Notes: generated by a model from the letters alone, not told the origin. Shown: positions 2-31,804, counted from the stretch's first letter. The stretch is DNA of 64,000 nt from Promethearchaeota archaeon (GCA_016840165.1 JAEOSU010000076.1:32001-96000); one strand, 5' to 3'. Numbers and translations: made by a program.

Positions 2-1321
2 TTCTATAAGCATTGAGAGATTTAAATTAAGACTATGTAAAAATGTTTTAAAAAAATCATAATTAACGTGAGGTAGTTCTAAACGAAAAATCTTTTCAAA
101 AATTATATTTAAAACTTCCATATTTGATATGAACGAAAAATTGTCCATGAAATTTTGGATATCTTTAATTGAATTTGCGTTAATCTCGATATCGGAAGTT
201 TTATTATGATTATTTAATACGCTCTTAAATTTTTCAGGTATTAATAATAATTCTCCCACTTCCAAGTTTTCAAGACTTCCTCCACCAAAATAATATTTCA
301 TATATAATAGAAAGAGATTAAATTGATTTTTAGTCGTTGGTAAGTTATTAGCTTGGAATGTTGAATACAAAGTAGATTTCCTGTCTAATACATCAAAAAA
401 TCTGAGTAAAGAATTTTTCTTTTCCTCAGTATAATTGAAATTAGCTAAAAATTCTTTTTTAATAACCTCTAATTTTGAATAAATAGAATCCTCAACCCGT
501 GAACAGACAAAGTTAAGAAAGTCTAAGATTGGAGAGAAGTTTTGTAATAGATTACACTTTTTATAAAAATAATACAATAAATCTACAAGTTTTTCTTTTG
601 CGAATGGATATTGCTCTAATGCTAATTGATATAGTTTTTCTCTACCTAGTAATAATTTTTCATTATAATTGTCTGGAATATTCTTAAAGATTTTAAGAAA
701 GTAAAAAAGAAACATGTAATAATAATTTTGAAAAGTTTCATCCTTGCTATTTTTAATAACAATGAAAAAACTAATGGTTTTTCCTTCCTCTCCATTGTTA
801 ACAACTGCTCCGTCTAATATGATGAATAATTTTTCTTGTAATAATTTTCTGATTATCACCCCTAAAATTGATATAATCAAATATAGGTAGCCAAAAGGAG
901 AGGTGATTCCATTGAGTTTATCTCCTAGGGCTTTTGAAAAGATTTCAAATTGTGATATTTCTTCATTGGATAAATAATAAATATATTCAAAAAATAAATT
1001 ATCATCAGATATTTTCTCTCGATTCAACAATTCTAACTGTTCTGAATTAAATCCACAAAACTCATTGATATAATTCTCAAAATATTTGTGAAACGTCTGG
1101 TAAAAAAAGGTAGTATATGATTTCTTTATTAATCGTTTGTTATTTTTATTTTGGAATTCTTGCCATTCTGATATTATAATACTCTTAAATTTACTGAAGT
1201 TAATACTATTTTCATTTAAAATTTCAAAAAAGATGTTAGAATTAAATTTTAGCGTTAAACCATTATTTTTTGCCGTATTACCTATAATATCTAAGACATC
1301 TTTAAGATTCTTCTTGACCAC
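2..1321 (-). CDS. Hypothetical protein, partial (runs off the window start)
   Basis: Not in the ORF track because there is no stop in the window. GTG at 1321 begins VVKKNLKDVLDIIG...; I translated the first ~200 codons and the last ~20 (...YDFFKTFLHSLNLNLSMLIE) and both are open in the same frame. Confidence 0.75.
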   Translation of the reverse strand, partial: MVKKNLKDVLDIIGNTAKNNGLTLKFNSNIFFEILNENSINFSKFKSIIISEWQEFQNKNNKRLIKKSYTTFFYQTFHKYFENYINEFCGFNSEQLELLNREKISDDNLFFEYIYYLSNEEISQFEIFSKALGDKLNGITSPFGYLYLIISILGVIIRKLLQEKLFIILDGAVVNNGEEGKTISFFIVIKNSKDETFQNYYYMFLFYFLKIFKNIPDNYNEKLLLGREKLYQLALEQYPFAKEKLVDLLYYFYKKCNLLQNFSPILDFLNFVCSRVEDSIYSKLEVIKKEFLANFNYTEEKKNSLLRFFDVLDRKSTLYSTFQANNLPTTKNQFNLFLLYMKYYFGGGSLENLEVGELLLIPEKFKSVLNNHNKTSDIEINANSIKDIQNFMDNFSFISNMEVLNIIFEKIFRLELPHVNYDFFKTFLHSLNLNLSMLIE

Positions 1322-1495
1322 AATAATTCCTACATGCTTTAATTGAAATTATAACCTTGTTCTAAAAAACCCTATTATTCTTAAATACAGATATATATTT
1401 AATTAAATTGAGGAAATAAAAATATTAGCTACAATTTAATAATTTTTCAAAAATTTGCTTATATAGAAAAAAATTACCTTATTGATGATGACCCG

Positions 1496-2533
1496 TCAGA
1501 AAATCTTTATGATTTCGTCTTTTTCTGAGTAGATCAACGGTTTAATCTTTCCATTCTTATCTTTCACCAGTAGATTTTCATGATTTGTAATAGTTCCAAT
1601 TTTTTCACATACAATTTTATTTTTTCTCAAGTATTCTAATAACTCTAAACAATTATTATTCTCTATTGTTATTATTAATGACCCTGATGAGATTGTATTC
1701 ATTGGATTCAGTTTAAATATATTACTTAATTCAAGGGGTTCTGGTAATATTGTAATCTTTTGTTGATCTATAGTCGCTCCATGTTTTGAGGCAATACATA
1801 TTTCTGCAATTCCGCAATATAGCCCTCCTTCAGTAGGATCATGCATAGAGTGAATATCAAATTTAGAATTAGCTAGATCGGCTTCTTTGTAAACACTTAT
1901 ACCAGGATCAAAGAGATAGTTCTTACATTTATCAATAAAAGCCGAATCATAACCCATTTTAAAGAGAAAATCTTCTTTTTCTCGGCCAATAATTGATGTA
2001 CCTTCTATAAAAATTCCCTTTGTAAGGATTATTGCATCTCCTGCTCTTGCTCCTGATGTTAGAACCAGTTTATCCTTCTCTACTTCACCCATTAATGATC
2101 CTACGACAATTGGTCTATTTAATCCACTTGTGACCTCTGTATGCCCCCCAATTACGCTTATACCATATTCTCTACAGGTATCATGGATGTTTTTAAATAT
2201 TGATTCTATTAATTCATCGTTTGTGTCCTTCTCAGGTAATAAAATCGTTGACTGAAACCATTTCGGTTTCGCTCCCATACAAATAACGTCATTGACATTA
2301 ACATTGACTACATAATATCCAATAGAATCTGTTGCAAAGGTGATAGGATCGGTCTTACTGACGAGATACTTATCTCCCATATCAATAACTGCTGCATCTT
2401 CTCCGATTTTAGAACCTTGTATTACTCGTGAATCTTTTATTTCCAGATCAGAAATATAATTTTCTATGATTTTCGCTATTTTGTCGTGTCTGAGTTTTCC
2501 AACTTTAAAATTTTGATCTTTCTGGTTATTCAT
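1496..2533 (-). CDS. AIR synthase-related (PurM/HypE/ThiL-like) family protein
   Basis: Motifs GKL, GEDAAV, KTDPIT, NVNDV..MGAKP, GGHTE, MHDPTEGGL. Start trimmed to the ATG at 2533 (MNNQ); the 38-aa extension to 2647 lies in AT-rich intergenic DNA. Confidence 0.85.
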   Translation of the reverse strand: MNNQKDQNFKVGKLRHDKIAKIIENYISDLEIKDSRVIQGSKIGEDAAVIDMGDKYLVSKTDPITFATDSIGYYVVNVNVNDVICMGAKPKWFQSTILLPEKDTNDELIESIFKNIHDTCREYGISVIGGHTEVTSGLNRPIVVGSLMGEVEKDKLVLTSGARAGDAIILTKGIFIEGTSIIGREKEDFLFKMGYDSAFIDKCKNYLFDPGISVYKEADLANSKFDIHSMHDPTEGGLYCGIAEICIASKHGATIDQQKITILPEPLELSNIFKLNPMNTISSGSLIITIENNNCLELLEYLRKNKIVCEKIGTITNHENLLVKDKNGKIKPLIYSEKDEIIKIF

Positions 2534-2687
2534 ACTCTTCAATAATGGGCTAATTATTACTGAATATTCGAAATAATTATAAAAAAATGACTTAAACTTA
2601 ATAACTTTAAATATCTTTAAATAAATAATCTTTTCTAGTATATACATAAGAATAGAAAAATAAGAATTTTAACAACTATTACCGAGT

Positions 2688-3221
2688 TTGAAAAAAATGG
2701 GATTTGGAAAAGCATTTGGATTTAGTTTAGTTACGTTTATTGGTATAAATTTCCTTTTTGTGATAATTACAGAGACAATCACGGGTGATCTTAATACTTT
2801 ATTTTCGGATATCACAACCAATCCATTAGTTTTATTCTTTGTCTTTTTTGGTCCAATTGTTTATATGCCTGGGCAGGTTGTGCAGTTAATTTATTTTTCA
2901 CTTTCTGGTGGTGTATATGATATCAACTTTATTGGATTGATTCTAACACTCATCGGAAGTATCATTGCACCATTAATAGCTTCCTTGATAGCGGGGAAAA
3001 CGGGTGAAAATAAAATGGGAAGTTTAGGGGGATGGTTTCTTACGGCAATTGTTTCTGGTTTGGCTATTGGTTTATTAGTATTTATTAATCCTGCGGTTTT
3101 AGCATATTATGGTTTGGCACCTACGATAGATACTTTTGTTCTTTCTTTACTAGGCGGTGTTGTGAACGGCATATTCTATGGAACATTCGCTTTGCTATTT
3201 GCGAGTATAGAACCTTATTAA
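2688..3221 (+). CDS. Hypothetical integral membrane protein
   Basis: 177 aa with about 5 hydrophobic, Gly-rich helices; T-rich tract follows the stop. Confidence 0.75.
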   Translation: MKKMGFGKAFGFSLVTFIGINFLFVIITETITGDLNTLFSDITTNPLVLFFVFFGPIVYMPGQVVQLIYFSLSGGVYDINFIGLILTLIGSIIAPLIASLIAGKTGENKMGSLGGWFLTAIVSGLAIGLLVFINPAVLAYYGLAPTIDTFVLSLLGGVVNGIFYGTFALLFASIEPY

Positions 3222-3274
3222 AAACCATCTAAATATAAACTTTTTTTATTTCCTTTTTTAAAATCGATTTAGTA

Positions 3275-4303
3275 CTATTTATTAGGAGACTTATATTTGT
3301 GAGCAAAAATGCTATATATACCAAATAAAAGTGTGAAGAACATAAAGATTAAAAATAAACCCGCTTCTTGAAATAGTAGAAAATCATTTATATCTGCTTT
3401 ATCAAATATTTTTGACACTTGAACATATAATTTCATAATAATTAAAAAAATCGTAATCGTGTCAGCTCGAAATAATTTTAATTTCTTCTTCAAATAATCT
3501 ACCTTATCATAGATTGAGCCAATAATATAGAAAAATAAAAAGAGATCGAGAAAAAAGGATCCAATCACATAGAGTGGGGCTTCGGATTCAGTACCATAGA
3601 GTTTACCAAATAAAAAGTCAAAAATAATATAGATTACATAGAAAAAAGTTAATAGGAAAAACAAAGTAATATATGCAGAAAATTTTTTAGTAACTAACAA
3701 TCTCACTATAACAATTATTATTAAAAAGATATTAGTCCATAGGATAATGCGTAAGATATTAATTGCTACTTGGGTAAAGGGAGTAATGTTGATAGTGAAA
3801 AAGCGCACAAATAATACTCCTATTATCCAATAAATTAAACCGAACAATAAGAATCCGAGAACTCTAAGAACTTTACCTATTTTTTTTTTGGAGTATAAAT
3901 AATCATCTACTTTAGTGGAAGAATCCATACATAGCTTAAATGCGAAAAAAGCAGTGAAAAAAAGATTCACATTAATGGAGATCAAATAAAATAAAGTAAA
4001 AGTTGGAAGAAATATGGATTCTCTAAAGAAAACAGCAATTAAAAGAGCGAGAATGAGGGCAACAATAAAATAGATTTTCTTTATTTTTTCAAATGGTTTA
4101 AAAAAGGAGAAAATGAATAAGATTATGTTAAATCCAATCAATAAAGCCCCAAAAAAGACTAATATGTTGCTTAAAATGAGATTATGGATCATTTCTCTCT
4201 CAAGCAGAATACCAATCCATATAGTGATAAATGAAAAAATGATGATTATATAAATTGGGCGTTTAAAAATCCCTTTTAATCCTGAGATAAAGCTCAAAAT
4301 CAT
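3275..4303 (-). CDS. Hypothetical polytopic membrane protein
   Basis: 342 aa with about 10 hydrophobic segments separated by Lys-rich loops. Confidence 0.75.
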   Translation of the reverse strand: MILSFISGLKGIFKRPIYIIIIFSFITIWIGILLEREMIHNLILSNILVFFGALLIGFNIILFIFSFFKPFEKIKKIYFIVALILALLIAVFFRESIFLPTFTLFYLISINVNLFFTAFFAFKLCMDSSTKVDDYLYSKKKIGKVLRVLGFLLFGLIYWIIGVLFVRFFTINITPFTQVAINILRIILWTNIFLIIIVIVRLLVTKKFSAYITLFFLLTFFYVIYIIFDFLFGKLYGTESEAPLYVIGSFFLDLFLFFYIIGSIYDKVDYLKKKLKLFRADTITIFLIIMKLYVQVSKIFDKADINDFLLFQEAGLFLIFMFFTLLFGIYSIFAHKYKSPNK

Positions 4304-21180: not shown

Positions 21181-23580
21181 ATGAAAAAAGTATTAATAGT
21201 TGGCGGAGTTGCTGGTGGTGCATCAGCGGCAGCTCGTTTAAGAAGGTTAATGGAAAATATAGAAATCATCGTATTTGAGAAAGGTTCTTTTGTCTCATTT
21301 GCTAATTGCGGTTTACCTTATTACGTTGGAAATGTAATAAAAGAACGTGATCAGCTAGAACTGATGACCCCGAAAGATTTTTATGATCGATTTAATATCG
21401 ATGTCAGAATAAATCAAGAAGTAATTTCGATTAATCGTAGTCAAAAGACAGTGAACATCATAGATTTAGAGAAAGATAGTGAATATTATTTAGAATATGA
21501 TTATTTAATACTCTCTCCTGGTGCCTCTCCTATCATACCCCCCTTCAAGGGTTTGAAAGATGTTCCAACTTTTACACTTCGGACTATTCCTGATTCTGTA
21601 AAAATAAGAGAATTTGCTGAAGAGAATAAAGTAAAACATGCAACTATCATTGGAGGAGGATATATTGGATTAGAAATGGCAGAAAATCTCAAAGAAAAAG
21701 GAATTCGAGTTAAGATTGTTGAAATGCTTGATCAAGTTTTAGCACCTTTAGATAAAGAAATGGCCCAGTTTATTCATCAAGAATTAATCTTAAATGGAGT
21801 ATGTCTTCAATTAGGAGATGCTGTCGACTCTTTTATGTGCGATGAGAACCAGTGCAACTATGTTATTCCAAAGAGTGGTAAAAAGATTAAAACTGATATG
21901 ATAATTATGGCAATAGGTGTAAAACCGGAGAATAAGTTAGCTATAGATTCAGGTTTAAAAGTTGGTCCGAAAGGACATATCATAGTTGATAATCATATGA
22001 GAACATCTGATCCTTACATTTATGCCGTAGGGGATGCGGTTCAAACTAATAATTATATTACAGACCAATCTGCAGCTATCCCACTTGCGGGTCCAGCAAA
22101 CAAACAAGGTAGAATTGCAGCCGACAACATAGCGGGAAGAAATTCGATATATAGAGGAATCTTAGGAGCTTCTGTACTTAAAGTTTTTGACCTTACAGTT
22201 GCATTTGTTGGATTAAGTGAGAAACAGTTAAAGGGGATGGATATTGATTATGAAAAAATTTATGTTCATCCAAATAATCATGCTGGTTATTATCCTGGTG
22301 CTATTCCGATTACACTTAAATTATTGTTTGAAAAAACAAGTGGTAAAATACTAGGAGCTCAAGCCGTTGGAGGGCCTGGTACTGAAAAACGCATAGATGT
22401 GATATCAACTGCAATAAAGTTTAAGGGAACAGTCTTTGATTTGGAAGAACTAGAGCTTACATATGCTCCCCCTTATGGATCAGCAAAGGATCCGGTCAAT
22501 ATGGCAGGATTTGTGGCATCAAATGTACTACGGGGAGATCATCCTATATGGCAATGGGAAGACTTACCAGAAATTCAACAAAATAATAGTGCATTTATAG
22601 ATGTAAGGACCCCCGAAGAATTTGAAGTTGGGTCGATTGAAAACGCATTGAATATCAATGATTTAGAATTACGACAGAGGTTAAATGAGATTCCAAAAGA
22701 TAAAAATATCTATGTATTTTGTGAAGTGGGTTTTCGTGGTTATTTAGCAACGAGATTATTGCTTCAAGAGGGTTTTGAAAAAGTTCGGAATCTTACAGGA
22801 GGTTATAAACTTTTAAAAACAGCCCAAGCGACTACGCAAGAATTAGCTGAAGCTTGCGGACCACCAGAAGAAATAATGGAAGAGATGATTCAAGAAAAAA
22901 CCACCGAAACTGATGAATTTATGGAAGTTGATGCTTGTGGAATTTCATGTCCAGGTCCTTTAAATGCTCTTATCCAAGGACTTGACAATCTGCCTGAAGG
23001 TAAAAAACTTAAAATATATACGACTGATCCTGGTTTTAAATCAAGTGTAGAAGCATATGTAAAACTCAACGAGGCTGTGAAGTTATTATACTTAGGAAAA
23101 GAAAAGGGAAAGCTAATGGCTATTCTCGAAAAAGGAATCATATCAAAAGAAGAAGTTAAAGCCCCTATTAAAGTGAAAAAGAAAACACGTTCTGAATTAA
23201 GAGGACCAGAAGCACCGCCCTTATCAGAGATAAATGCAACCGAATTATATGACAGAATGGGTACTGAAGATTCACCCGCATTAGTAGTGGATGTTCGAAC
23301 ACCCTCTGAATACCATGAAACAGGTTATATAAAAGACTCAGAGTTGATACCATTAGGAGAGTTAATGAGAGATTTAGGAAAATTAGAGGAGTATAAAGAT
23401 AAAGAAGTCGTAGTCTTATGTGCAGTAGGGGGTCGTTCTTTCATGGCAGCACAGCTTTTAGTGAGGGAGGGTTTTAGAGACGTAAGAAACCTAGTCGGAG
23501 GAATAAAAGCTTGGATAAGACTCGGTTACCCAGTAACTGGAGGCGTGATAGATTCAACCGTAAAATATCTTAAAACCTAA
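21181..23580 (+). CDS. CoA-disulfide/persulfide reductase fused to rhodanese, TusA and a second rhodanese domain
   Basis: GGVAGG, SFANCGLPY, GGGYIGLE, YAPP; rhodanese DVRTPEE...FCEVGFRG; TusA DACGISCPGP...DPGF; rhodanese DVRTPSE...LCAVGGRS. Confidence 0.92.
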   Translation: MKKVLIVGGVAGGASAAARLRRLMENIEIIVFEKGSFVSFANCGLPYYVGNVIKERDQLELMTPKDFYDRFNIDVRINQEVISINRSQKTVNIIDLEKDSEYYLEYDYLILSPGASPIIPPFKGLKDVPTFTLRTIPDSVKIREFAEENKVKHATIIGGGYIGLEMAENLKEKGIRVKIVEMLDQVLAPLDKEMAQFIHQELILNGVCLQLGDAVDSFMCDENQCNYVIPKSGKKIKTDMIIMAIGVKPENKLAIDSGLKVGPKGHIIVDNHMRTSDPYIYAVGDAVQTNNYITDQSAAIPLAGPANKQGRIAADNIAGRNSIYRGILGASVLKVFDLTVAFVGLSEKQLKGMDIDYEKIYVHPNNHAGYYPGAIPITLKLLFEKTSGKILGAQAVGGPGTEKRIDVISTAIKFKGTVFDLEELELTYAPPYGSAKDPVNMAGFVASNVLRGDHPIWQWEDLPEIQQNNSAFIDVRTPEEFEVGSIENALNINDLELRQRLNEIPKDKNIYVFCEVGFRGYLATRLLLQEGFEKVRNLTGGYKLLKTAQATTQELAEACGPPEEIMEEMIQEKTTETDEFMEVDACGISCPGPLNALIQGLDNLPEGKKLKIYTTDPGFKSSVEAYVKLNEAVKLLYLGKEKGKLMAILEKGIISKEEVKAPIKVKKKTRSELRGPEAPPLSEINATELYDRMGTEDSPALVVDVRTPSEYHETGYIKDSELIPLGELMRDLGKLEEYKDKEVVVLCAVGGRSFMAAQLLVREGFRDVRNLVGGIKAWIRLGYPVTGGVIDSTVKYLKT

Positions 23581-23708: not shown

Positions 23709-24293
23709 ATGAAAGAAACACCAAAAAAGCTATTCGCCGCTTATGTTGGTGAATCTCAAGCACGTAATCGATATACATTCTTCTCTAAAATCGCGAAGAA
23801 GGAAGGTTATGCTTTAATTGCAAAGATTTTTGAAGAGACAGCGGAACAAGAACTTCAACATGGTTCATGGTTCTATAAGATGCTTCAAGATTTCAAAAAG
23901 GAAGAAGCATTTGATGATTTTAAAGTATGTGAAGAATATCCAACAACTTATAGCAATACTAGAGAGAATTTGAAATCAGCTGTTAAAGGAGAGACTATGG
24001 AGTGGCAAACACTTTATCCAGATTTAGCCGATACTGCTGAAAAAGAGGGTTATCCTGATATAGCAAAAAGAACAAGGGCAATTGCACGAGCTGAACAACA
24101 TCATTCAGAACGCTATGGAAAATTATTAAAATTAGTGGGTGATGATGCTTTCTTTAAACGTGGTAAAAAAGTAGTCTGGGTTTGTTTGGAATGTGGTTAC
24201 GAGGTTGAGATGGATGAACTACCTGAAAATTGGATATGTCCAAGTTGTTCTCATCCCAGAGCTTATTTCATGAAGAAATGTGAAGATTTCTAA
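23709..24293 (+). CDS. rbr: Rubrerythrin
   Basis: GESQARNRY, E..H motifs (QELQH, AEQHH), C-terminal CLEC...CPSC rubredoxin domain. Confidence 0.95.
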   Translation: MKETPKKLFAAYVGESQARNRYTFFSKIAKKEGYALIAKIFEETAEQELQHGSWFYKMLQDFKKEEAFDDFKVCEEYPTTYSNTRENLKSAVKGETMEWQTLYPDLADTAEKEGYPDIAKRTRAIARAEQHHSERYGKLLKLVGDDAFFKRGKKVVWVCLECGYEVEMDELPENWICPSCSHPRAYFMKKCEDF

Positions 24294-26353: not shown

Positions 26354-26442
26354 TTCGCTTTATTAAGTACTTAAATCAAGATATAAATAATATCAACAAA
26401 AAAGTAGATGACAATACTTAATAAAAAAATAAAAATTTTATT

Positions 26443-27621
26443 TTAATCCCTCTTTTTCGCAAGATACGGCATGGCATGCTCATACCTATTTAATACAAAT
26501 CGGGATATAATAATTCTTTGCACTTCGCTTGTTCCTTCATAAATTTGATAGAGTTTTGCATCTCTAAATAGCTTTTCCACAGGATATGTTCTTAAATATC
26601 CATATCCTCCAAAGATTTGGATGGCTTCGGTAGTAACATTCATGGCAACATCCGATGCGAATGCTTTTGCGATAGCAGAACTAAGGTTATTATCTTTACC
26701 TTGGTCTGCCTCCCAAGCCGCTCTATACGTTAATAATCGAGCTGCTTCGATATCTTTATACATATTAGCGATTTTTTCCTGTATCATTTGATATTTTTCA
26801 ATTGGTCTACCAAAAGCTTCTCGTTTCTTGGCATAATCTATGCTGTACTCCATAGCAGATCTTGCACATCCGACAGCAAAAGCACCAATGGCAGGTCGAG
26901 TATGAGCAAAAGTCTGCATCGCTAGGACAAATCCTCTACCAGGTTTTGCCAAGACATTTTCTTTTGGGATTCTCACGTCTTTTAAACCCACCGAAACAGT
27001 ATTGGAAGCTCTCTGACCTAATTTGGGTATATGCTTCCCTAATCTAACTCCCTCGCTTTTTGTATCAACAATAAACGCTGCTATTCCTTTGTGTTTCTTC
27101 TCTGGATCTGTAGTAGCAAAAACAGTAACGTAATTAGCATGTCCACCATTAGTAATCCAAAATTTATTACCATTGAGAATATATTCATCTCCATCTTGTT
27201 CTGCTCTACATTTCATGCCAGCGACGTCAGATCCCATAGTAGGCTCAGAAGTGGCGAATGCTATTAATTTAAATTCATTTGTAAGTTCTCCTAATATTCT
27301 TTGTTTTTGCTCCTCATTACCACCAATAACAATCGGTTCTGCTCCTAAATTATTATCAAATATTGAGGTCGCTATGCCTGGACAAGCGGAGGAGATTTCC
27401 TCAACGACAATGCAAGCATCCATTAACCCATAGCCGGGGCCACCATATTGTTTAGGAATCCCTAAATTAAGCAATCCTATCTCCCAGGCTTTTTTAATGA
27501 CGGGTAATGGAAATTCTTCAGATTCATCATATTTTTGAGCAACAGGTAGTACTTCATTTACAGCAAATTCTCGTGCTTTTTTTTGTAATGCAATTTGTTC
27601 TTCCATTAATTTAAAATCCAT
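26443..27621 (-). CDS. Acyl-CoA dehydrogenase
   Basis: FATSEP..GSD, NGNKFWITNG, KLGQRAS, R.AFG, QIFGGYGY, IYEGTSEVQR (catalytic Glu). Confidence 0.95.
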   Translation of the reverse strand: MDFKLMEEQIALQKKAREFAVNEVLPVAQKYDESEEFPLPVIKKAWEIGLLNLGIPKQYGGPGYGLMDACIVVEEISSACPGIATSIFDNNLGAEPIVIGGNEEQKQRILGELTNEFKLIAFATSEPTMGSDVAGMKCRAEQDGDEYILNGNKFWITNGGHANYVTVFATTDPEKKHKGIAAFIVDTKSEGVRLGKHIPKLGQRASNTVSVGLKDVRIPKENVLAKPGRGFVLAMQTFAHTRPAIGAFAVGCARSAMEYSIDYAKKREAFGRPIEKYQMIQEKIANMYKDIEAARLLTYRAAWEADQGKDNNLSSAIAKAFASDVAMNVTTEAIQIFGGYGYLRTYPVEKLFRDAKLYQIYEGTSEVQRIIISRFVLNRYEHAMPYLAKKRD

Positions 27622-27635
27622 TATTTTCCCTCGTT

Positions 27636-28844
27636 TTACCCCATTTTTTCAACTAATTTATCAACAATATTTTTGAAATCTAAATCCTCAGGTCTAGGGA
27701 CAAATCGAATTTCGATTTTCTCTTCCATAACATCTATTTTAGTTTCTTCTAATTCCTTTATGATCTCTTTCACTGCGCCCCCTCCCCATCCATAAGAACC
27801 AAAAGCCATTCCTACCTTATTCATTGGTTTAAGACCCTTTTGATAACTTAAATATTCAGCAACTAAGGGATAAAGCCCATTATTTAATGTTGGACTGCCT
27901 ACTAAAATAGCTTTTGCTTTCATTGCTTCAGTTATTACATCCGAATAATCAGCATTGGTCAATCGAAACCGTTTTGCAGAAATCCCTCGATGAATAATCT
28001 CTTTATATAAAGCTTTCGCGATTTTTTCGGTACTACCCCACATTGTATCATATACGATTAAAACACTTTTACCATCAGTTTTACCAGCAGACCATTTTGT
28101 ATATGCTTCAAGTATTTTTCCAATGTGAGTTCTCCAGCACACGCCATGAGAAGGACAGATAATATCGATAGCTAATGCACCTACTTTCGGTATGGCTTTT
28201 GTTATTAATCCTGATAAATGAAGTAAGATATTAGCATAATATTTCTCTGCTTCCCACATAATTTCAGCAATATCATTCTCATCATCCCACCGTTTAGAAG
28301 TGGCAAAATGTTGTCCAAAAGCATCATTTGAGAAAAGAATATTCTTGCCATTTTCGTCGGACATAAATGAAACCATCGAATCAGGCCAATGAATCATTGG
28401 AATGGGGACAAACGTAAATTGTTTCCCGTTTCCTATTTCTAATGTGTCTCCTTCCTTTACAGCTCTAATATTCTCAAAATGCTTTTTATCGAGTTCTTCA
28501 TGATAATGGGCTTCAAGTATTTCTTTACCTCGTGTAGATGCAATAATCTCCGCATTTGGTAAATGTTTTAAGATCAAGGGAAAAGAGCCTGAATGATCGG
28601 GTTCTACATGGTTGACAATGAAGTAGTCAATTTCGCTTGGATCACAAACATGTTTTATGTTGCTTAAGAAATATTCATAGTAAGGACGCTTTACTGCGTC
28701 GATTAAGACAGTTTTTTCTCCCGATTTAACAATATATGCATTATAAGAAGATCCTTTATGGGTAGAGTATCCATGGAAATTACGAACCTCAAAATCTACA
28801 TAGCCAACATAATAAACATCTTTCATTAATTCTAAATGTGTCAT
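27636..28844 (-). CDS. fprA: Flavodiiron protein (class A)
   Basis: HVEPDH, HWPD, SNDAFGQH, PSHG; flavodoxin domain YDTMWGST, GSPT, FGSYGWGGG. Confidence 0.95.
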   Translation of the reverse strand: MTHLELMKDVYYVGYVDFEVRNFHGYSTHKGSSYNAYIVKSGEKTVLIDAVKRPYYEYFLSNIKHVCDPSEIDYFIVNHVEPDHSGSFPLILKHLPNAEIIASTRGKEILEAHYHEELDKKHFENIRAVKEGDTLEIGNGKQFTFVPIPMIHWPDSMVSFMSDENGKNILFSNDAFGQHFATSKRWDDENDIAEIMWEAEKYYANILLHLSGLITKAIPKVGALAIDIICPSHGVCWRTHIGKILEAYTKWSAGKTDGKSVLIVYDTMWGSTEKIAKALYKEIIHRGISAKRFRLTNADYSDVITEAMKAKAILVGSPTLNNGLYPLVAEYLSYQKGLKPMNKVGMAFGSYGWGGGAVKEIIKELEETKIDVMEEKIEIRFVPRPEDLDFKNIVDKLVEKMG

Positions 28845-28955
28845 TCACTAATTCATCTTTTTTTAGGATTAGTACTTTAATTTTGTTTAATTTCATTAGG
28901 ATTATAAATTTAATTTCTATGATTTATAAAATTTGGAAAGAATCTAGATATTTCA

Positions 28956-29843
28956 TTATTTTTTTTCGAGTGGCCATTCCAATAGAGACATTATTAAATT
29001 CTGATTAGAAAGACCCCCTCTGGTTAATTTTCCTATAAAATTTTCTTTACCAAACATTTTTCGCGTTATATATTTTAAAAATCGTTTACCATCAAGGCCT
29101 TTATCTTGTGCTTCCTTTTGGAATTTAAATGCTTTTTCATGTAAATCTTCGATTTCCTCAATTTTTTCCTTGATTATCGAACGATTTTTAAATACACCTC
29201 GTCCTGCAGTAAAAATGACTAAATTATCCATATTTTTAGTGATTTCTTCAATTTTTCTCAGAGATTCATAAATCTGGAAGATATCTTCAGGTATATCCGT
29301 AGTTTTACCAAAAATCATAGTATATTTCGGCATTATACCATCAGCAATAATGGCCCATTCTTGCGTTCTTTCAAGTAATGCGATTTCTTCCATAGCATGA
29401 CCAGGAATTTCGATTATATCAAATCTATATTTGTTCTTGCAAGTTAAAATAGAAGTTTCTACGGCTTTTGCGTTAAAGGGGCGATAAGGAAAACCCCATG
29501 TAATCCTTCTATAATCAGGATAATTTTTCTTTTTTTTGAGATGTGGTAATGCCTTTTTGCTCGCATAAATAGGTATATTAAATTCAGATTGAAGCATCGC
29601 TGCTCCTCCGCAATGATCTTCGTGAGAATGCGTGATAACACACTTCTTTACTTTATGATCGTCATCAAGCGAAAGAATAAACTTTCTTAAATCCTCTACA
29701 CTTCCAGGAGCTCCTGAATCGATTAACAACCCGTCTATCAAAAAGCATGAGGTCCAGAAAGGAGCAGGTAGAAGCTTGCTATCTGAGGACCATTTCCATT
29801 CTATTATCTCTCCACTGCAATGATATTTAATATCTACAACCAT
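28956..29843 (-). CDS. Metallo-beta-lactamase fold hydrolase
   Basis: LLIDSG, THSHEDH, PGH, AD; the final His motif appears altered (TAGRG). Confidence 0.85.
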   Translation of the reverse strand: MVVDIKYHCSGEIIEWKWSSDSKLLPAPFWTSCFLIDGLLIDSGAPGSVEDLRKFILSLDDDHKVKKCVITHSHEDHCGGAAMLQSEFNIPIYASKKALPHLKKKKNYPDYRRITWGFPYRPFNAKAVETSILTCKNKYRFDIIEIPGHAMEEIALLERTQEWAIIADGIMPKYTMIFGKTTDIPEDIFQIYESLRKIEEITKNMDNLVIFTAGRGVFKNRSIIKEKIEEIEDLHEKAFKFQKEAQDKGLDGKRFLKYITRKMFGKENFIGKLTRGGLSNQNLIMSLLEWPLEKK

Positions 29844-29979
29844 TTTTATATCATGAAAATAGGTTTCAATAAAGGAAAAGAAGCAGAAAAATAAGAGACT
29901 TTTGAAAAAAGTAGTATAATAAACTTGGAATAAAATTTAAAAATTTTAAAAAAAAAGAATTATGAGATATTGGTTTATC

Positions 29980-30120
29980 TTAATCTGATATTTTTGTAAA
30001 AAAACTTTTATCCACGCCACAAACAGGACAAACCCAATCATCTGGGAGATCCTCAAATTTAGTTCCTTCTGCAGCTTCGTCATAAACATATCCACATGCA
30101 GAACACTCGTATTTTGCCAT
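29980..30120 (-). CDS. Rubredoxin (46 aa), missing from the ORF track
   Basis: Hand translation: [46 protein letters not shown]; GAGTGA SD-like motif upstream. Confidence 0.95.
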
Positions 30121-30293
30121 TTAAAGTCACTCTTTATGTTTGTATAATTTGAGTTTTTAAATTAGATATTAATTAAAAATAATTGTGTAATAATTTATAA
30201 AACTTATAATCTGAAAGGGATGAAATAAATGCAAAATTGAGATTTATATGTTTATAAATAATGTTTGGCTTATGTAAGGATGAAATTTTTAAA

Positions 30294-30443
30294 TTAATTA
30301 AGTCCTATTGATTTTTTAACAAAGAATTGCCGCGATGCCCTACATTTGGGGCATTTATATTCATCCTTTAGCTTATCAAAGGAGATTTCATTCTCATCAT
30401 CAACGTAAAGATAATTACATCTTTTACATCGGTAGATTGCTAT
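30294..30443 (-). CDS. Rubredoxin-like protein (49 aa, probable AUA start)
   Basis: (M)AIYRCKRCNYLYVD...FDKLKDEYKCPKCRA. AGGTGA at 30456-30451 lies 7 nt before the ATA at 30443. The track start (30509) overlaps the upstream gene. Confidence 0.8.
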   Translation of the reverse strand: MAIYRCKRCNYLYVDDENEISFDKLKDEYKCPKCRASRQFFVKKSIGLN

Positions 30444-30454
30444 AAATTTTTCAC

Positions 30455-31804
30455 CTATATTTTTAGTTTGAAATCTTTTTTCGTAGCACGGCAATCTGGA
30501 TTCGGACATTTAAAAGTGTCTGGTAAATCCTCAAAAGGTACTTCCATTTTTGCTTCATCATACACAGCACCACAGTTGACACATGCATATTCGTGTATAT
30601 CCAATAACTTTCTTAATTCTTTAGGATCGACATCTTGTTCCATTTTATTAGTAACATATTGCATCGCGGTATTGTCTCCAAATAATATTGCTCCCTTTAG
30701 TTTATTATCTTTAAGAACAATTTTCTCATAACAGCAATCTTTTTTATCTGCTTTTCTTAAGATGTCCCATCCTCCACCCTGTTCACTGCTAGGATCAAAA
30801 ATTCCTATAGAAGTCAAATCTAAACCTACGATTTTCAATGTATTTTTTGGAGTGGTTCCAGCATATTTTTTGGTTTTCTTTTCAAGAACAGAAGCAGAAA
30901 TTATTTTAGATTGTTCCATACACGCTGGAATAATGCCCCATGTCTGATTTTTATATTCAATACAATCTCCTACAGCATATACATCTTTTTCACTTGTTTC
31001 CAAGAATTCATTTACAATTATACCTCGATTAGTTTCAATACCTGCATTTTTTGCTAACGTAATTTCTGGACTAATTCCTGCTTGGATAAGAACAATATCA
31101 GCATTGAATACTCTCCCATCTTTAAGTTTGATACCCTCAACATGATTATTTCCAAGAATAGCTTCTGTGGCAGCGCTTAAGACAACATTTATTCCTCTTC
31201 CTTTGATCTCTTCTTTCAACATTAAACTGCATTCATCATCCAATTGTTTTGGTAATAATCGGGGAAAAAATTCAACCACAGTAGTGTCGAGATCTAATTG
31301 ATTAATTTGATTAGCTAATTCTAAACCAAGTAAACCCCCACCAATGATGACTGCTTTAGATTTTATGTTAAGTTTGGCAATATATTCTTTAATCTCTAGC
31401 GCATCTTTGATATTACGAAGAGTAAAAAGTCCTTTATGCTCCATCTCGGGTGCGTTTTCGATTGGAGGGATATTTGGATTGCTTCCAGTGGCAATGATAA
31501 GCTTATCATAAGAAAGAGGGCCGGGAGACTTATCGGTATAGATTTTCTTTTCCTTTGGAAGAATTTTTACTACTTTCTCCTCTAAGTGAAGTGATATCTT
31601 ATTAGTATGGTACCAATTTTCCTTAAAAACAATAAAATCATCGATAGAAACTTTATCGGATATAAATTCCGGTAATTTAATTCGGGTATAATAAGGGTAT
31701 TTTTCTTCAGTAAAAATCTCAATATCCACACCATCATTGAGATTACGGATATTCTGAGCACTAAACGTTCCCGCAACATTGTTTCCGATAATTATTATCT
31801 TCAT
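30455..31804 (-). CDS. NAD(P)H:rubredoxin oxidoreductase-like flavoprotein with a fused C-terminal rubredoxin domain
   Basis: IIGNNVAG, Y.RI.L, IATGS, IGGGLLGLE, YAVGD; C-terminal CVNCGAVYDE...FEDLPDTFKCPNPDC. Confidence 0.9.
   Translation of the reverse strand: MKIIIIGNNVAGTFSAQNIRNLNDGVDIEIFTEEKYPYYTRIKLPEFISDKVSIDDFIVFKENWYHTNKISLHLEEKVVKILPKEKKIYTDKSPGPLSYDKLIIATGSNPNIPPIENAPEMEHKGLFTLRNIKDALEIKEYIAKLNIKSKAVIIGGGLLGLELANQINQLDLDTTVVEFFPRLLPKQLDDECSLMLKEEIKGRGINVVLSAATEAILGNNHVEGIKLKDGRVFNADIVLIQAGISPEITLAKNAGIETNRGIIVNEFLETSEKDVYAVGDCIEYKNQTWGIIPACMEQSKIISASVLEKKTKKYAGTTPKNTLKIVGLDLTSIGIFDPSSEQGGGWDILRKADKKDCCYEKIVLKDNKLKGAILFGDNTAMQYVTNKMEQDVDPKELRKLLDIHEYACVNCGAVYDEAKMEVPFEDLPDTFKCPNPDCRATKKDFKLKI

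Follow-up and report, generated by a model that had tools for sequence, protein, structure and literature searches.

The gene cluster analyzed here probably encodes a soluble, rubredoxin-centered chain for O2 reduction with two electron inputs, in which electrons would pass from an acyl-CoA dehydrogenase (ACAD) to rubredoxin (Rd), from there to the flavodiiron protein FprA and finally to O2. Lokiarchaeia are Asgard archaea regarded as strict syntrophic anaerobes, and it is acyl-CoA oxidation that obliges such organisms to live in syntrophy. The cluster suggests that they probably burn acyl-CoA electrons on O2, using independently evolved parts. Gene content, gene order, gene fusions, phylogeny and cofactor-ligand residues were established directly. 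All six genes that the initial annotation had assigned to one strand were found on the minus strand of the window (the whole 64,000-nt stretch of DNA that was analyzed), where we delimited the following features:

30455..31804, minus strand: NROR with a C-terminal four-Cys rubredoxin-like domain, 449 aa, identified by its Pfam matches
30294..30443, minus strand: small rubredoxin-like protein, ~49 aa, CKRC...CPKC, Pfam Rubredoxin 21.9 bits
29980..30120, minus strand: rubredoxin (Rd), 46 aa, Pfam Rubredoxin 1.6e-15, 57 bits
28956..29843, minus strand: metallo-beta-lactamase-fold (MBL) protein, Lactamase_B 9.2e-12, HSHEDH motif (HxHxDH)
27636..28844, minus strand: class A flavodiiron protein FprA, 402 aa, ODP 1.7e-25 and Flavodoxin_1 8.3e-17
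27622..27635, minus strand: fprA-ACAD spacer, 14 nt, with a GAGGG Shine-Dalgarno-like element 5′ of the ACAD ATG
26443..27621, minus strand: MCAD-like ACAD, 392 aa, with three ACAD domains
26412..26442, minus strand: T-rich stretch after the ACAD stop codon, TTTTTATTTTTTTATT immediately 3′ of the TAA

The NROR has the features of its family, a two-dinucleotide-binding-domain flavoprotein (Pyr_redox_2, 1.3e-55, 189 bits; Pyr_redox, 3e-18) with the NROR C-terminal domain Rubredoxin_C (PF18267, 7.8e-14, 51.8 bits), and its orthologues in related loci are 64-68% identical. The Rd domain at its C-terminus (aa 406-445) scores 21.8 bits, slightly below the Pfam cut-off of 23, and has a variant Cys pattern (CVNC...CPNPDC, that is, CxxC...Cx4C). 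The score of the small rubredoxin-like protein is also marginally below this cut-off. Its mechanically called ORF starts at an ATG at 30509 and overlaps the NROR gene by 55 nt; the start is probably the ATA at 30443-30441, 7 nt past a GGTGA, as the 48-aa orthologues in L063, L064 and L066 begin with an ATG that aligns there (M[AS]I[YH]RC...). The 46-aa Rd carries the four Cys residues of a rubredoxin in two CxxC knuckles (CSAC...CPVC), a predicted Fe site, and a run of T lies 3′ of its stop codon. In a genome-wide PF00301 search it was the sole free-standing canonical rubredoxin gene, the remaining matches being only the Rd domains of NROR and of rubrerythrin, and each genome checked had one free canonical Rd gene, 1-15 kb from the ACAD. 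The MBL gene separates Rd from fprA in just four loci, those of the window and its close relatives L025, L028, and L029, while in most related loci Rd is directly 5′ of fprA with no MBL gene between them; the MBL protein is thus outside the conserved core.

FprA consists of the diiron MBL-like and flavodoxin domains of class A flavodiiron proteins (FDPs), with no further domains, and all seven diiron ligands (H79, E81, D83, H84, H152, D174, and H233) are invariant in FprA alignment A2. Among solved structures, the rubredoxin-dependent Moorella FprA (1ycf) is its closest relative with 363 bits, compared with 240 bits for the methanogen F420H2 oxidases. The ACAD matches Acyl-CoA_dh_N, _M and _1 (PF02771, PF02770, and PF00441) with E-values of 3e-52, 1e-30, and 5e-23, far above the cut-offs, and aligns over its full length with the Thermus ACAD 1ukw and mammalian MCAD (400-409 bits, ~50% identity). 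Residue E362 corresponds to the catalytic base E376 of pig MCAD and is nearly invariant across the ACAD clade (ACAD alignment A1), and the YEGT motif is conserved. The distance between the fprA stop codon and the ACAD ATG is indeed the 14 nt previously claimed. This short spacer and its GAGGG element point to co-transcription and possibly to coupled translation, and a 284-nt RNA-library contig spanning 27505-27742 gives weak evidence of a transcript across the junction. As oligo-T is a known archaeal termination signal, the T-rich stretch downstream of the ACAD is likely the end of the fprA-ACAD transcription unit.

Chains of NROR, rubredoxin and FDP are known from Moorella thermoacetica (FprA/Hrb), from Desulfovibrio gigas (ROO), and from the NROR-Rd systems of Clostridium and Pyrococcus. 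Like these, the window encodes the whole set of NROR, Rd and class A FDP, with an FprA closest to that of Moorella, and the chain is complete without the ACAD. Unlike them, it has an ACAD that may be translationally linked to fprA and is fused to Rd in relatives, which would add a putative second, high-potential electron donor.

The association of fprA with ACAD is kept across the order. We collected 56 species-level Lokiarchaeial loci with an orthologous ACAD, 36 of them with the ACAD type of the window. In 44 of the 56, fprA was located at most 750 nt upstream of ACAD on the same strand, and it was directly upstream, with gaps of 8-30 nt, in 34 of the 36, although the genomes compared are related and these counts are not independent events. 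In four further genomes fprA is 3.6-7 kb from ACAD and adjoins NROR. Two FprA paralogues, only ~32% identical, are each found directly upstream of ACAD in different families, type I in the window and L108 (78% identical) and type II in other families. As a control, we inspected 80 non-Asgard ACAD relatives (43-65% identity) and found FprA or a free Rd within 2.5 kb of none of them; among the 79 that lack a fused Rd, none had fprA or Rd nearby and 13 had etfBA directly downstream. The fprA-ACAD adjacency is therefore more than chance. In the other Asgard classes, the ACAD orthologues lack a fused Rd and frequently stand beside different genes, for example the HdrA-MvhD-like genes in L091.

The link between ACAD and rubredoxin that had been proposed for this locus is supported by gene fusions. 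All 10 ACAD orthologues tested from other Lokiarchaeial families or subclades have a C-terminal Rd domain, which follows the ACAD part after a charged linker of ~25 residues, and more were seen beyond these. The fused domains are of two types, canonical (PF00301, 78-81 bits) and rubrerythrin-type (PF21349, 36-50 bits). These fusions of orthologous ACADs tie the clade to rubredoxin as its redox partner. The window ACAD itself has no rubredoxin domain; the protein ends at residue 392, 5 residues beyond AMPxL, a point at which the fused forms continue into the linker. In the ACAD tree (IQ-TREE quick, 81 rows) support is 98 for the Lokiarchaeial clade, and the unfused type of the window (99) is nested among forms fused to canonical Rd (98, 95), indicating secondary loss of the Rd domain. 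In the lineage of the window, the free Rd encoded upstream of fprA would replace the lost domain.

The cluster may be compared with butyryl-CoA:oxygen oxidoreductase (BOOR) of Fusobacterium nucleatum, composed of BCR (FN1424) and an FDP (FN1423) (Bystrom and Wolthers, 2024, as reviewed in PMC12288474). BOOR, a stable alpha4beta4 complex, is also present in butyrogenic Firmicutes and passes electrons from butyryl-CoA (E0′ -10 mV) to O2 (+820 mV) via a rubredoxin domain and the FDP (PMC12288474). An ETF-alpha FAD domain stands between the flavin of its ACAD and rubredoxin. The initial annotation had named a single fused enzyme from Fusobacterium; the precedent exists, but the fusion is Bcd-EtfA(C-terminus)-Rd and the FDP is a separate subunit. 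As in BOOR, ACAD and an adjoining class A FDP gene form a tight bicistron, rubredoxin is the link (fused to ACAD in sister lineages and not in the window), the context is one of oxidative stress with rubrerythrin, and the genome also codes for a bifurcating Bcd-EtfAB at another site. We also retrieved a bacterial BCR-FDP operon (L111), whose BCR, P0233, matches PF00766 at 92 bits, whereas PF00766 is absent from the window ACAD and the 10 fused orthologues. Other differences from BOOR are that the window ACAD has no C-terminal Rd domain, that fprA precedes ACAD in the archaea while BCR precedes FDP in L111, that an NROR input is encoded alongside in the archaeal cluster, and that the FDPs are only ~30-35% identical. 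In the tree, P0233 clusters (support 95) with ACADs of the Bcd type, among them the ETF-linked Bcd of the window's genome, whereas the window ACAD, 41% identical to P0233, belongs to a clade apart from these (supports 96, 98, and 98), placing it in an MCAD-like lineage and BCR in the Bcd lineage. The archaeal system is not orthologous to BOOR and, given the different ACAD lineage, the resemblance is one of analogy. Thus, of the proposal of an unfused archaeal acyl-CoA:O2 chain, the functional link is backed by the conserved pair and the Rd fusions, while its description as a split bacterial enzyme is not upheld, and ETF is encoded elsewhere in the genome.

Taken together, the cluster is probably an archaeal functional analogue of BOOR built on another ACAD lineage and lacking the ETF-alpha FAD domain. 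Its ordinary input would be NAD(P)H, entering the rubredoxin pool through NROR-Rd. In the second, the window ACAD would be the entry point for acyl-CoA, its FAD reducing rubredoxin in two one-electron steps; as the ETF-alpha FAD domain is absent from the archaeal proteins, direct transfer from FAD to rubredoxin is an assumption. Rd is the candidate one-electron shuttle from ACAD or NROR to FprA, the putative terminal O2 (or NO) reductase, where electrons would pass through FMN to the diiron site and reduce O2 to water, for a net reaction of 2 acyl-CoA + O2 -> 2 enoyl-CoA + 2 H2O. That the ACAD reduces rubredoxin, which way the electrons flow, and what the substrate and product are is what we infer from the sequences; that acyl-CoA electrons probably go to O2 follows from the pairing of FprA with an ACAD whose close relatives carry Rd.

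The ACAD-Rd step is probably reversible, as rubredoxins have potentials close to that of the acyl-CoA/enoyl-CoA couple. Alternatively, the ACAD, with or without a fused Rd, could be a rubredoxin-dependent, non-bifurcating enoyl-CoA reductase receiving electrons from NAD(P)H via NROR and Rd, which would regenerate NAD+ in an O2-tolerant manner when the ferredoxin-linked bifurcating Bcd-EtfAB is compromised, while FprA merely shares the rubredoxin pool. The loci L039-L041, L066, and L110, with the order NROR-Rd, Rd(-like), Rd, ACAD-Rd and no fprA between or adjacent, fit this equally well, and the reaction from NADH (-320 mV) to crotonyl-CoA (-10 mV) would be strongly downhill (potentials from PMC12288474). 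We nevertheless consider it unlikely, since the characterized analogue BOOR runs from acyl-CoA to O2 (same source), fprA (8-30 nt gaps, two paralogues), not NROR, is the gene with which the ACAD is most tightly and most widely linked, and MCAD-like enzymes are typically oxidative.

Alternatively, the ACAD may be an ordinary ETF-dependent enzyme of beta-oxidation or amino-acid catabolism that neither gives electrons to Rd or FprA nor takes them from these proteins in this organism and is co-expressed with oxidative-stress genes, for example as an O2-tolerant stand-in for another ACAD. The absence of an ETF gene noted in the initial annotation holds for the window's contig (C58), on which PF01012 and PF00766 have no match; as a correction to that annotation, both match in the genome, on contig C30 only, which carries bcd-etfB-etfA. 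Together with the loss of the Rd domain, this makes ETF use by the window ACAD possible, and the NROR-Rd-FprA chain needs no extra donor. MCAD W166, which mediates electron transfer to ETF, is retained as W155; MCAD E212, an ETF contact, corresponds to Ile198 and is not conserved in the Thermus ACAD either. The ACAD also shares its catalytic base and its FAD and substrate motifs with the ETF-dependent MCAD and 1ukw, but differs from them in being partnered in the genome with FprA or Rd and not with etfBA, and in having orthologues with Rd domains. This explanation appears improbable to us, as it does not account for the Rd fusions of all sister lineages, the retention of fprA directly upstream after Rd loss (34/36 loci), or the use of two FprA paralogues. 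Nor does it account for the ACAD-Rd gene of genus g2 (three genomes, one closed, 4.4 Mb), in none of which did PF01012 or PF00766 detect an ETF. Furthermore, the operon on C30 pairs the ETF with a Bcd paralogue of its own (43% identity to the window ACAD). Finally, ACAD-fold proteins with other chemistries exist and the fused orthologues have weak HpaB_N matches (~1e-7), but an oxidase, monooxygenase or Rd-using redox sensor not acting on acyl-CoA is very improbable given the full-length similarity to MCAD and the Thermus ACAD, the conserved E362 and YEGT, and the three well-matched ACAD domains.

In the literature collection searched, we found no paper linking Asgard archaea with flavodiiron proteins and rubredoxin or ACAD. 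If the acyl-CoA to O2 chain is real, bacterial BOOR would have its first archaeal counterpart, and an ACAD flavin would be shown to pass electrons to rubredoxin with no ETF-type flavin in between. For Lokiarchaeia it would provide cheap O2 detoxification and less dependence on an H2 or formate partner; by inference, it may offer an escape from the syntrophic H2 sink. More tentatively, Lokiarchaeia could dispose of electrons in the cytoplasm on trace O2 at the thermodynamically hardest step in breaking down fatty acids and amino acids, the conversion of acyl-CoA to enoyl-CoA, via the independently evolved, ETF-free ACAD-rubredoxin-FprA route. Combined with the bifurcating Bcd-EtfAB (ferredoxin-domain type, C30), cycling between enoyl-CoA and acyl-CoA could let O2 reduction yield reduced ferredoxin. 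How the Asgard host lineage coped with, or profited from, oxygen is central to models of eukaryogenesis, and such a combination of O2 sink and ferredoxin cycle would represent a non-respiratory energy gain from oxygen in the archaeal lineage nearest the eukaryotic host.

Six genes lie on the minus strand between positions 26443 and 31804 of the window, which has a G+C content of ~30% and belongs to a 3.6 Mb assembly that is 99.7% complete:

within 26443-31804, minus strand: NADH:rubredoxin oxidoreductase (NROR) with a C-terminal 4-Cys rubredoxin-like domain, 449 aa
within 26443-31804, minus strand: small rubredoxin-like ORF with a CxxC...CxxC pattern
within 26443-31804, minus strand: rubredoxin (Rd), 46 aa, 57 bits
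within 26443-31804, minus strand: MBL-fold protein, 295 aa
within 26443-31804, minus strand: class A flavodiiron protein (FDP) FprA, 402 aa, with ODP and flavodoxin domains
26443-27621, minus strand: acyl-CoA dehydrogenase (ACAD), 392 aa, all three ACAD domains present

The spacer between fprA and the ACAD gene is 14 nt long and contains GAGGG. Because T-rich runs occur 3′ of the Rd and ACAD genes, and AT-rich gaps of 173, 136 and 111 nt lie 5′ of the Rd gene, the MBL-fold gene and fprA, respectively, fprA-ACAD is the only tightly coupled pair. In one sediment metatranscriptome, contigs that are 90-99% alike match parts of four of the genes (ACAD, fprA, Rd and NROR), and one of 284 nt spans the fprA-ACAD junction; these come from a related strain, may include DNA carry-over, and are weakly compatible with co-transcription of the pair in a relative. 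The MBL-fold gene and other stretches had no matching contigs, which carries no meaning. A scan with a sigma-70 promoter/terminator model, which is inapplicable to archaea, showed no enrichment over shuffled sequences. The rubredoxin-like gene likely uses a non-canonical ATA start: at 30441-30457 (minus strand) ATA occupies the site of the ATG start of its orthologues at three related loci (L063, L064 and L066), GGTGA lies 7 nt 5′ of it and overlaps the NROR stop codon, and a start at the sole in-frame ATG (30509) would lengthen the protein by 22 residues and make its gene overlap that of NROR by 55 nt.

The flanks encode a CoA-disulfide-reductase/rhodanese/TusA fusion, a rubrerythrin, a Prismane-family protein with a ferredoxin, an FMN reductase and an HTH_10 regulator, a gene content that marks the locus as an oxidative-stress island. 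The first of these (21181-23580, plus strand; 799 aa) joins a CoA-disulfide-reductase-like part to two rhodanese domains and TusA; it is followed by the rubrerythrin gene (23709-24293, plus strand), and both also adjoin the ACAD cluster in relatives (L063-L065). ACADs 88-91% identical to that of the window are labeled by NCBI as proteins of Promethearchaeota/Lokiarchaeota MAGs, which places the organism in the Lokiarchaeial lineage of the Asgard archaea.

Sequence comparison identifies the window ACAD as a genuine MCAD-like enzyme, with 409 bits against the Thermus ACAD 1ukw, ~400 bits over the full length of pig and human MCAD, and 318 bits against the Bcd of the Clostridioides Bcd-Etf complex. 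Its E362, nearly invariant across the clade, corresponds in the alignment to E376, the catalytic base of MCAD. The ETF-docking residue W166 of MCAD is kept as W155, and E212 is replaced by Ile198 at a position that is variable in the Thermus ACAD too; these two residues do not appear to discriminate on ETF use. FprA has all seven diiron ligands (7/7 invariant) and scores best against the Rd-dependent FprA of Moorella (363 bits), followed by E. coli flavorubredoxin (290), D. gigas ROO (263) and methanogen F420H2 oxidases (240). A complex prediction for the FprA (A2) and ACAD (A1) alignments, run without controls, scored 0.00 against a mark of 0.32, a value that we weigh neither way on binding.

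We scored the flanks of orthologous ACADs (52-92% identity; paralogues are at or below 45%) across the genus, family and order, using species-representative genomes.

Table. Genes upstream of orthologous ACADs
Window-type ACAD, unfused, at least 83% identity, 36 loci: fprA directly upstream on the same strand, with gaps of 8-30 nt, in 34/36; an Rd gene there in 2/36
ACAD fused to canonical Rd, 73-79% identity, 8 loci: directly upstream, fprA in 3/8 and an Rd gene in 4/8; none found in 1/8
ACAD fused to rubrerythrin-type Rd, 52-61% identity, other families, 12 loci: fprA within 200 nt in 6/12 and at 728 nt in 1/12

At four of the other rubrerythrin-type loci in the table, for which wider flanks were considered, fprA lies 3.6-7 kb upstream, beside a divergent NROR gene. 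Conservation of the fprA-ACAD pair, which the initial annotation had named as a check on its proposal of an acyl-CoA:O2 oxidoreductase, is thus borne out, and it extends to loci with fused ACADs. By comparison, among the matches listed for 80 non-Asgard relatives (43-65% identity) in the species-genome collection, neither FprA nor a free Rd was found within 2.5 kb of any ACAD (0/80), and etfBA was directly downstream in 13. The FprA beside the ACAD is of two types that share only ~32% identity, type I in the window (78% identical to that of locus L108) and type II in other families. Inherited gene order by itself hardly accounts for two FDP paralogues occupying the same position beside the same ACAD clade. 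The window's genome also encodes a type II FprA (413 aa; G000:C14:47296-50811, L016:1321-2562), with no ACAD adjacent, which is 53% identical to the FprA beside ACAD-Rd in other families. In an Asgard family of another class (f11; L091:7325-11748), an unfused orthologous ACAD adjoins a 721-aa protein that fuses HdrA-like and MvhD (FlpD) parts, and also a 753-aa protein bearing 4Fe-4S motifs; BLAST found no ETF-, Rd- or FprA-like gene within 6 kb of this ACAD, and its neighbors hint at another non-ETF partner for the clade.

ACAD orthologues from other families and subclades are longer than the window protein, and all 10 that were tested carry a C-terminal Rd domain; more such fusions turned up in other searches. 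The domain is a short Rd of rubrerythrin type (PF21349, 36-50 bits, ~aa 412-443) in the other families and a canonical Rd (PF00301, 78-81 bits, aa 419-465) in neighboring genera and one subclade of the genus to which the window belongs, with a charged linker of ~25 residues between ACAD and Rd in both types. A maximum likelihood tree of 81 ACADs (IQ-TREE quick, LG+C20; all values are SH-aLRT supports) unites the Asgard orthologues (93) and, among them, the Lokiarchaeial proteins (98). The latter divide into two groups: one holds the rubrerythrin-type fusions (99), and in the other (98) the canonical-Rd fusions branch at the base, with the unfused window type (99) nested among them. The window ACAD ends 5 residues past the AMPxL motif, where the linker begins in the fused forms. 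This, together with the nesting, indicates that it lost its Rd domain secondarily, within a clade that is wired to Rd. After this loss, the window ACAD gene still has fprA as its immediate upstream neighbor, with a free Rd gene a little farther on. This Rd gene is the only canonical rubredoxin gene of the genome, and three other genomes checked have a single Rd gene, 1-15 kb from the ACAD gene.

A search for ACAD-Rd proteins without ETF-alpha outside Asgard archaea, using the Rd region of L065 as query and limited to shared 5-residue words, returned only Promethearchaeota-type proteins. A genome scan detected an ACAD of 447 aa with an Rd domain of the rubrerythrin type (L114:2498-3841; MIBH01000020.1, G+C 52%) in a MAG labeled 'Spirochaetes bacterium RBG_13_51_14'; it is 63-65% identical to both Lokiarchaeial subclades, has no FDP within 2.5 kb, and is due either to lateral transfer or to an error in binning. 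Rd fusions of other kinds were also seen (P0294-P0334), many of them ~284-aa metagenomic Fe/Mn superoxide dismutases (PF00081 and PF02777), with glycosyl-transferase, flavin-reductase and Prismane fusions among the others.

The Fusobacterium precedent cited in the initial annotation was essentially right. [quoted passage not shown] However, BCR contains an ETF-alpha domain, which no archaeal member has, and carries Rd on the ACAD subunit, whereas the window ACAD has none; the order BCR-FDP is reversed in the archaea; BOOR-type FDPs share 30-35% identity with the archaeal ones; and BCR falls in the Bcd clade with the ETF-linked Bcd encoded by the window's genome, separated by several well-supported branches from the Lokiarchaeial ACADs. 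These five differences make the archaeal module a functional analogue of independent origin, and the word 'split' in the earlier proposal does not stand. We also rejected the window genes as a split bacterial BOOR: the only BCR-like form among the best 150 representatives, P0233 (638 aa; ACAD, ETF_alpha and Rubredoxin, with a 398-aa FDP 4 nt downstream), is 41% identical and belongs to a different clade.

From the observed gene content, gene order, fusions, phylogeny and ligand residues we infer the electron transfer, its direction, the substrate and the product; a chain from ACAD through Rd and FprA to O2 is the most likely mechanism, and on balance a probable one. Acyl-CoA would reduce the ACAD flavin, which would pass two single electrons to rubredoxin, free in the window and tethered in relatives, and rubredoxin would reduce the FMN of FprA and, through the diiron site, O2 to water. 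Rubredoxin can also receive electrons from NAD(P)H by way of NROR-Rd, which would make the cluster a two-input O2 reductase. With general background values for the potentials of Rd, and with acyl-CoA and O2 potentials as given in PMC12288474, the step from ACAD to Rd would be near equilibrium and pulled by O2 reduction. Alternatively, electrons may flow from NAD(P)H through NROR and Rd to ACAD, which would then act as a non-bifurcating enoyl-CoA reductase; loci in which ACAD-Rd follows NROR and Rd with no fprA speak for this direction, which we nevertheless consider unlikely.

The ACAD might also depend on ETF and share a regulon with its neighbors and nothing more. The initial annotation was correct in the gene set, the fprA-ACAD pair and the lack of ETF in the window, but this lack does not extend to the genome, whose only ETF matches are on contig C30, in the operon L002 (G000:C30:224340-227882):

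2225-3385, minus strand: bcd
1303-2121, minus strand: etfB
90-1289, minus strand: etfA

The C30 Bcd, one of 12 ACAD-family genes in the genome, is 43% identical to the window ACAD, and EtfA has an N-terminal, CarE-like 2x[4Fe-4S] ferredoxin domain. Such a domain points to a bifurcating Bcd-EtfAB, by which the enoyl-CoA formed by the FprA-linked ACAD could be reduced again. Mere co-regulation agrees with an encoded EtfAB and with a window ACAD lacking an Rd domain, but the Rd fusions of the orthologues and the two FprA paralogues beside the ACAD argue against it, as does a genus, g2, with no ETF-family match. Among its three genomes, which have an ACAD-Rd gene, PF00766 was matched in none (G025, G028 and G032) and PF01012 was not matched in G032, which is closed (4.4 Mb), so ETF cannot be the acceptor for ACAD-Rd there. 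Each also has other ACAD paralogues (5-7 ACAD-family matches per genome), and the argument is therefore not specific to ACAD-Rd. Overall, we regard simple co-regulation as quite unlikely, and an ACAD fold with a function outside acyl-CoA chemistry as highly improbable.

A search of a literature collection found no paper tying Asgard archaea to flavodiiron proteins plus rubredoxin or ACAD. The ACAD-Rd-FprA chain would represent an archaeal acyl-CoA/rubredoxin/FDP system that has no ETF module and evolved independently of BOOR, and one that matters for how the Asgard lineage deals with oxygen and for its syntrophy.
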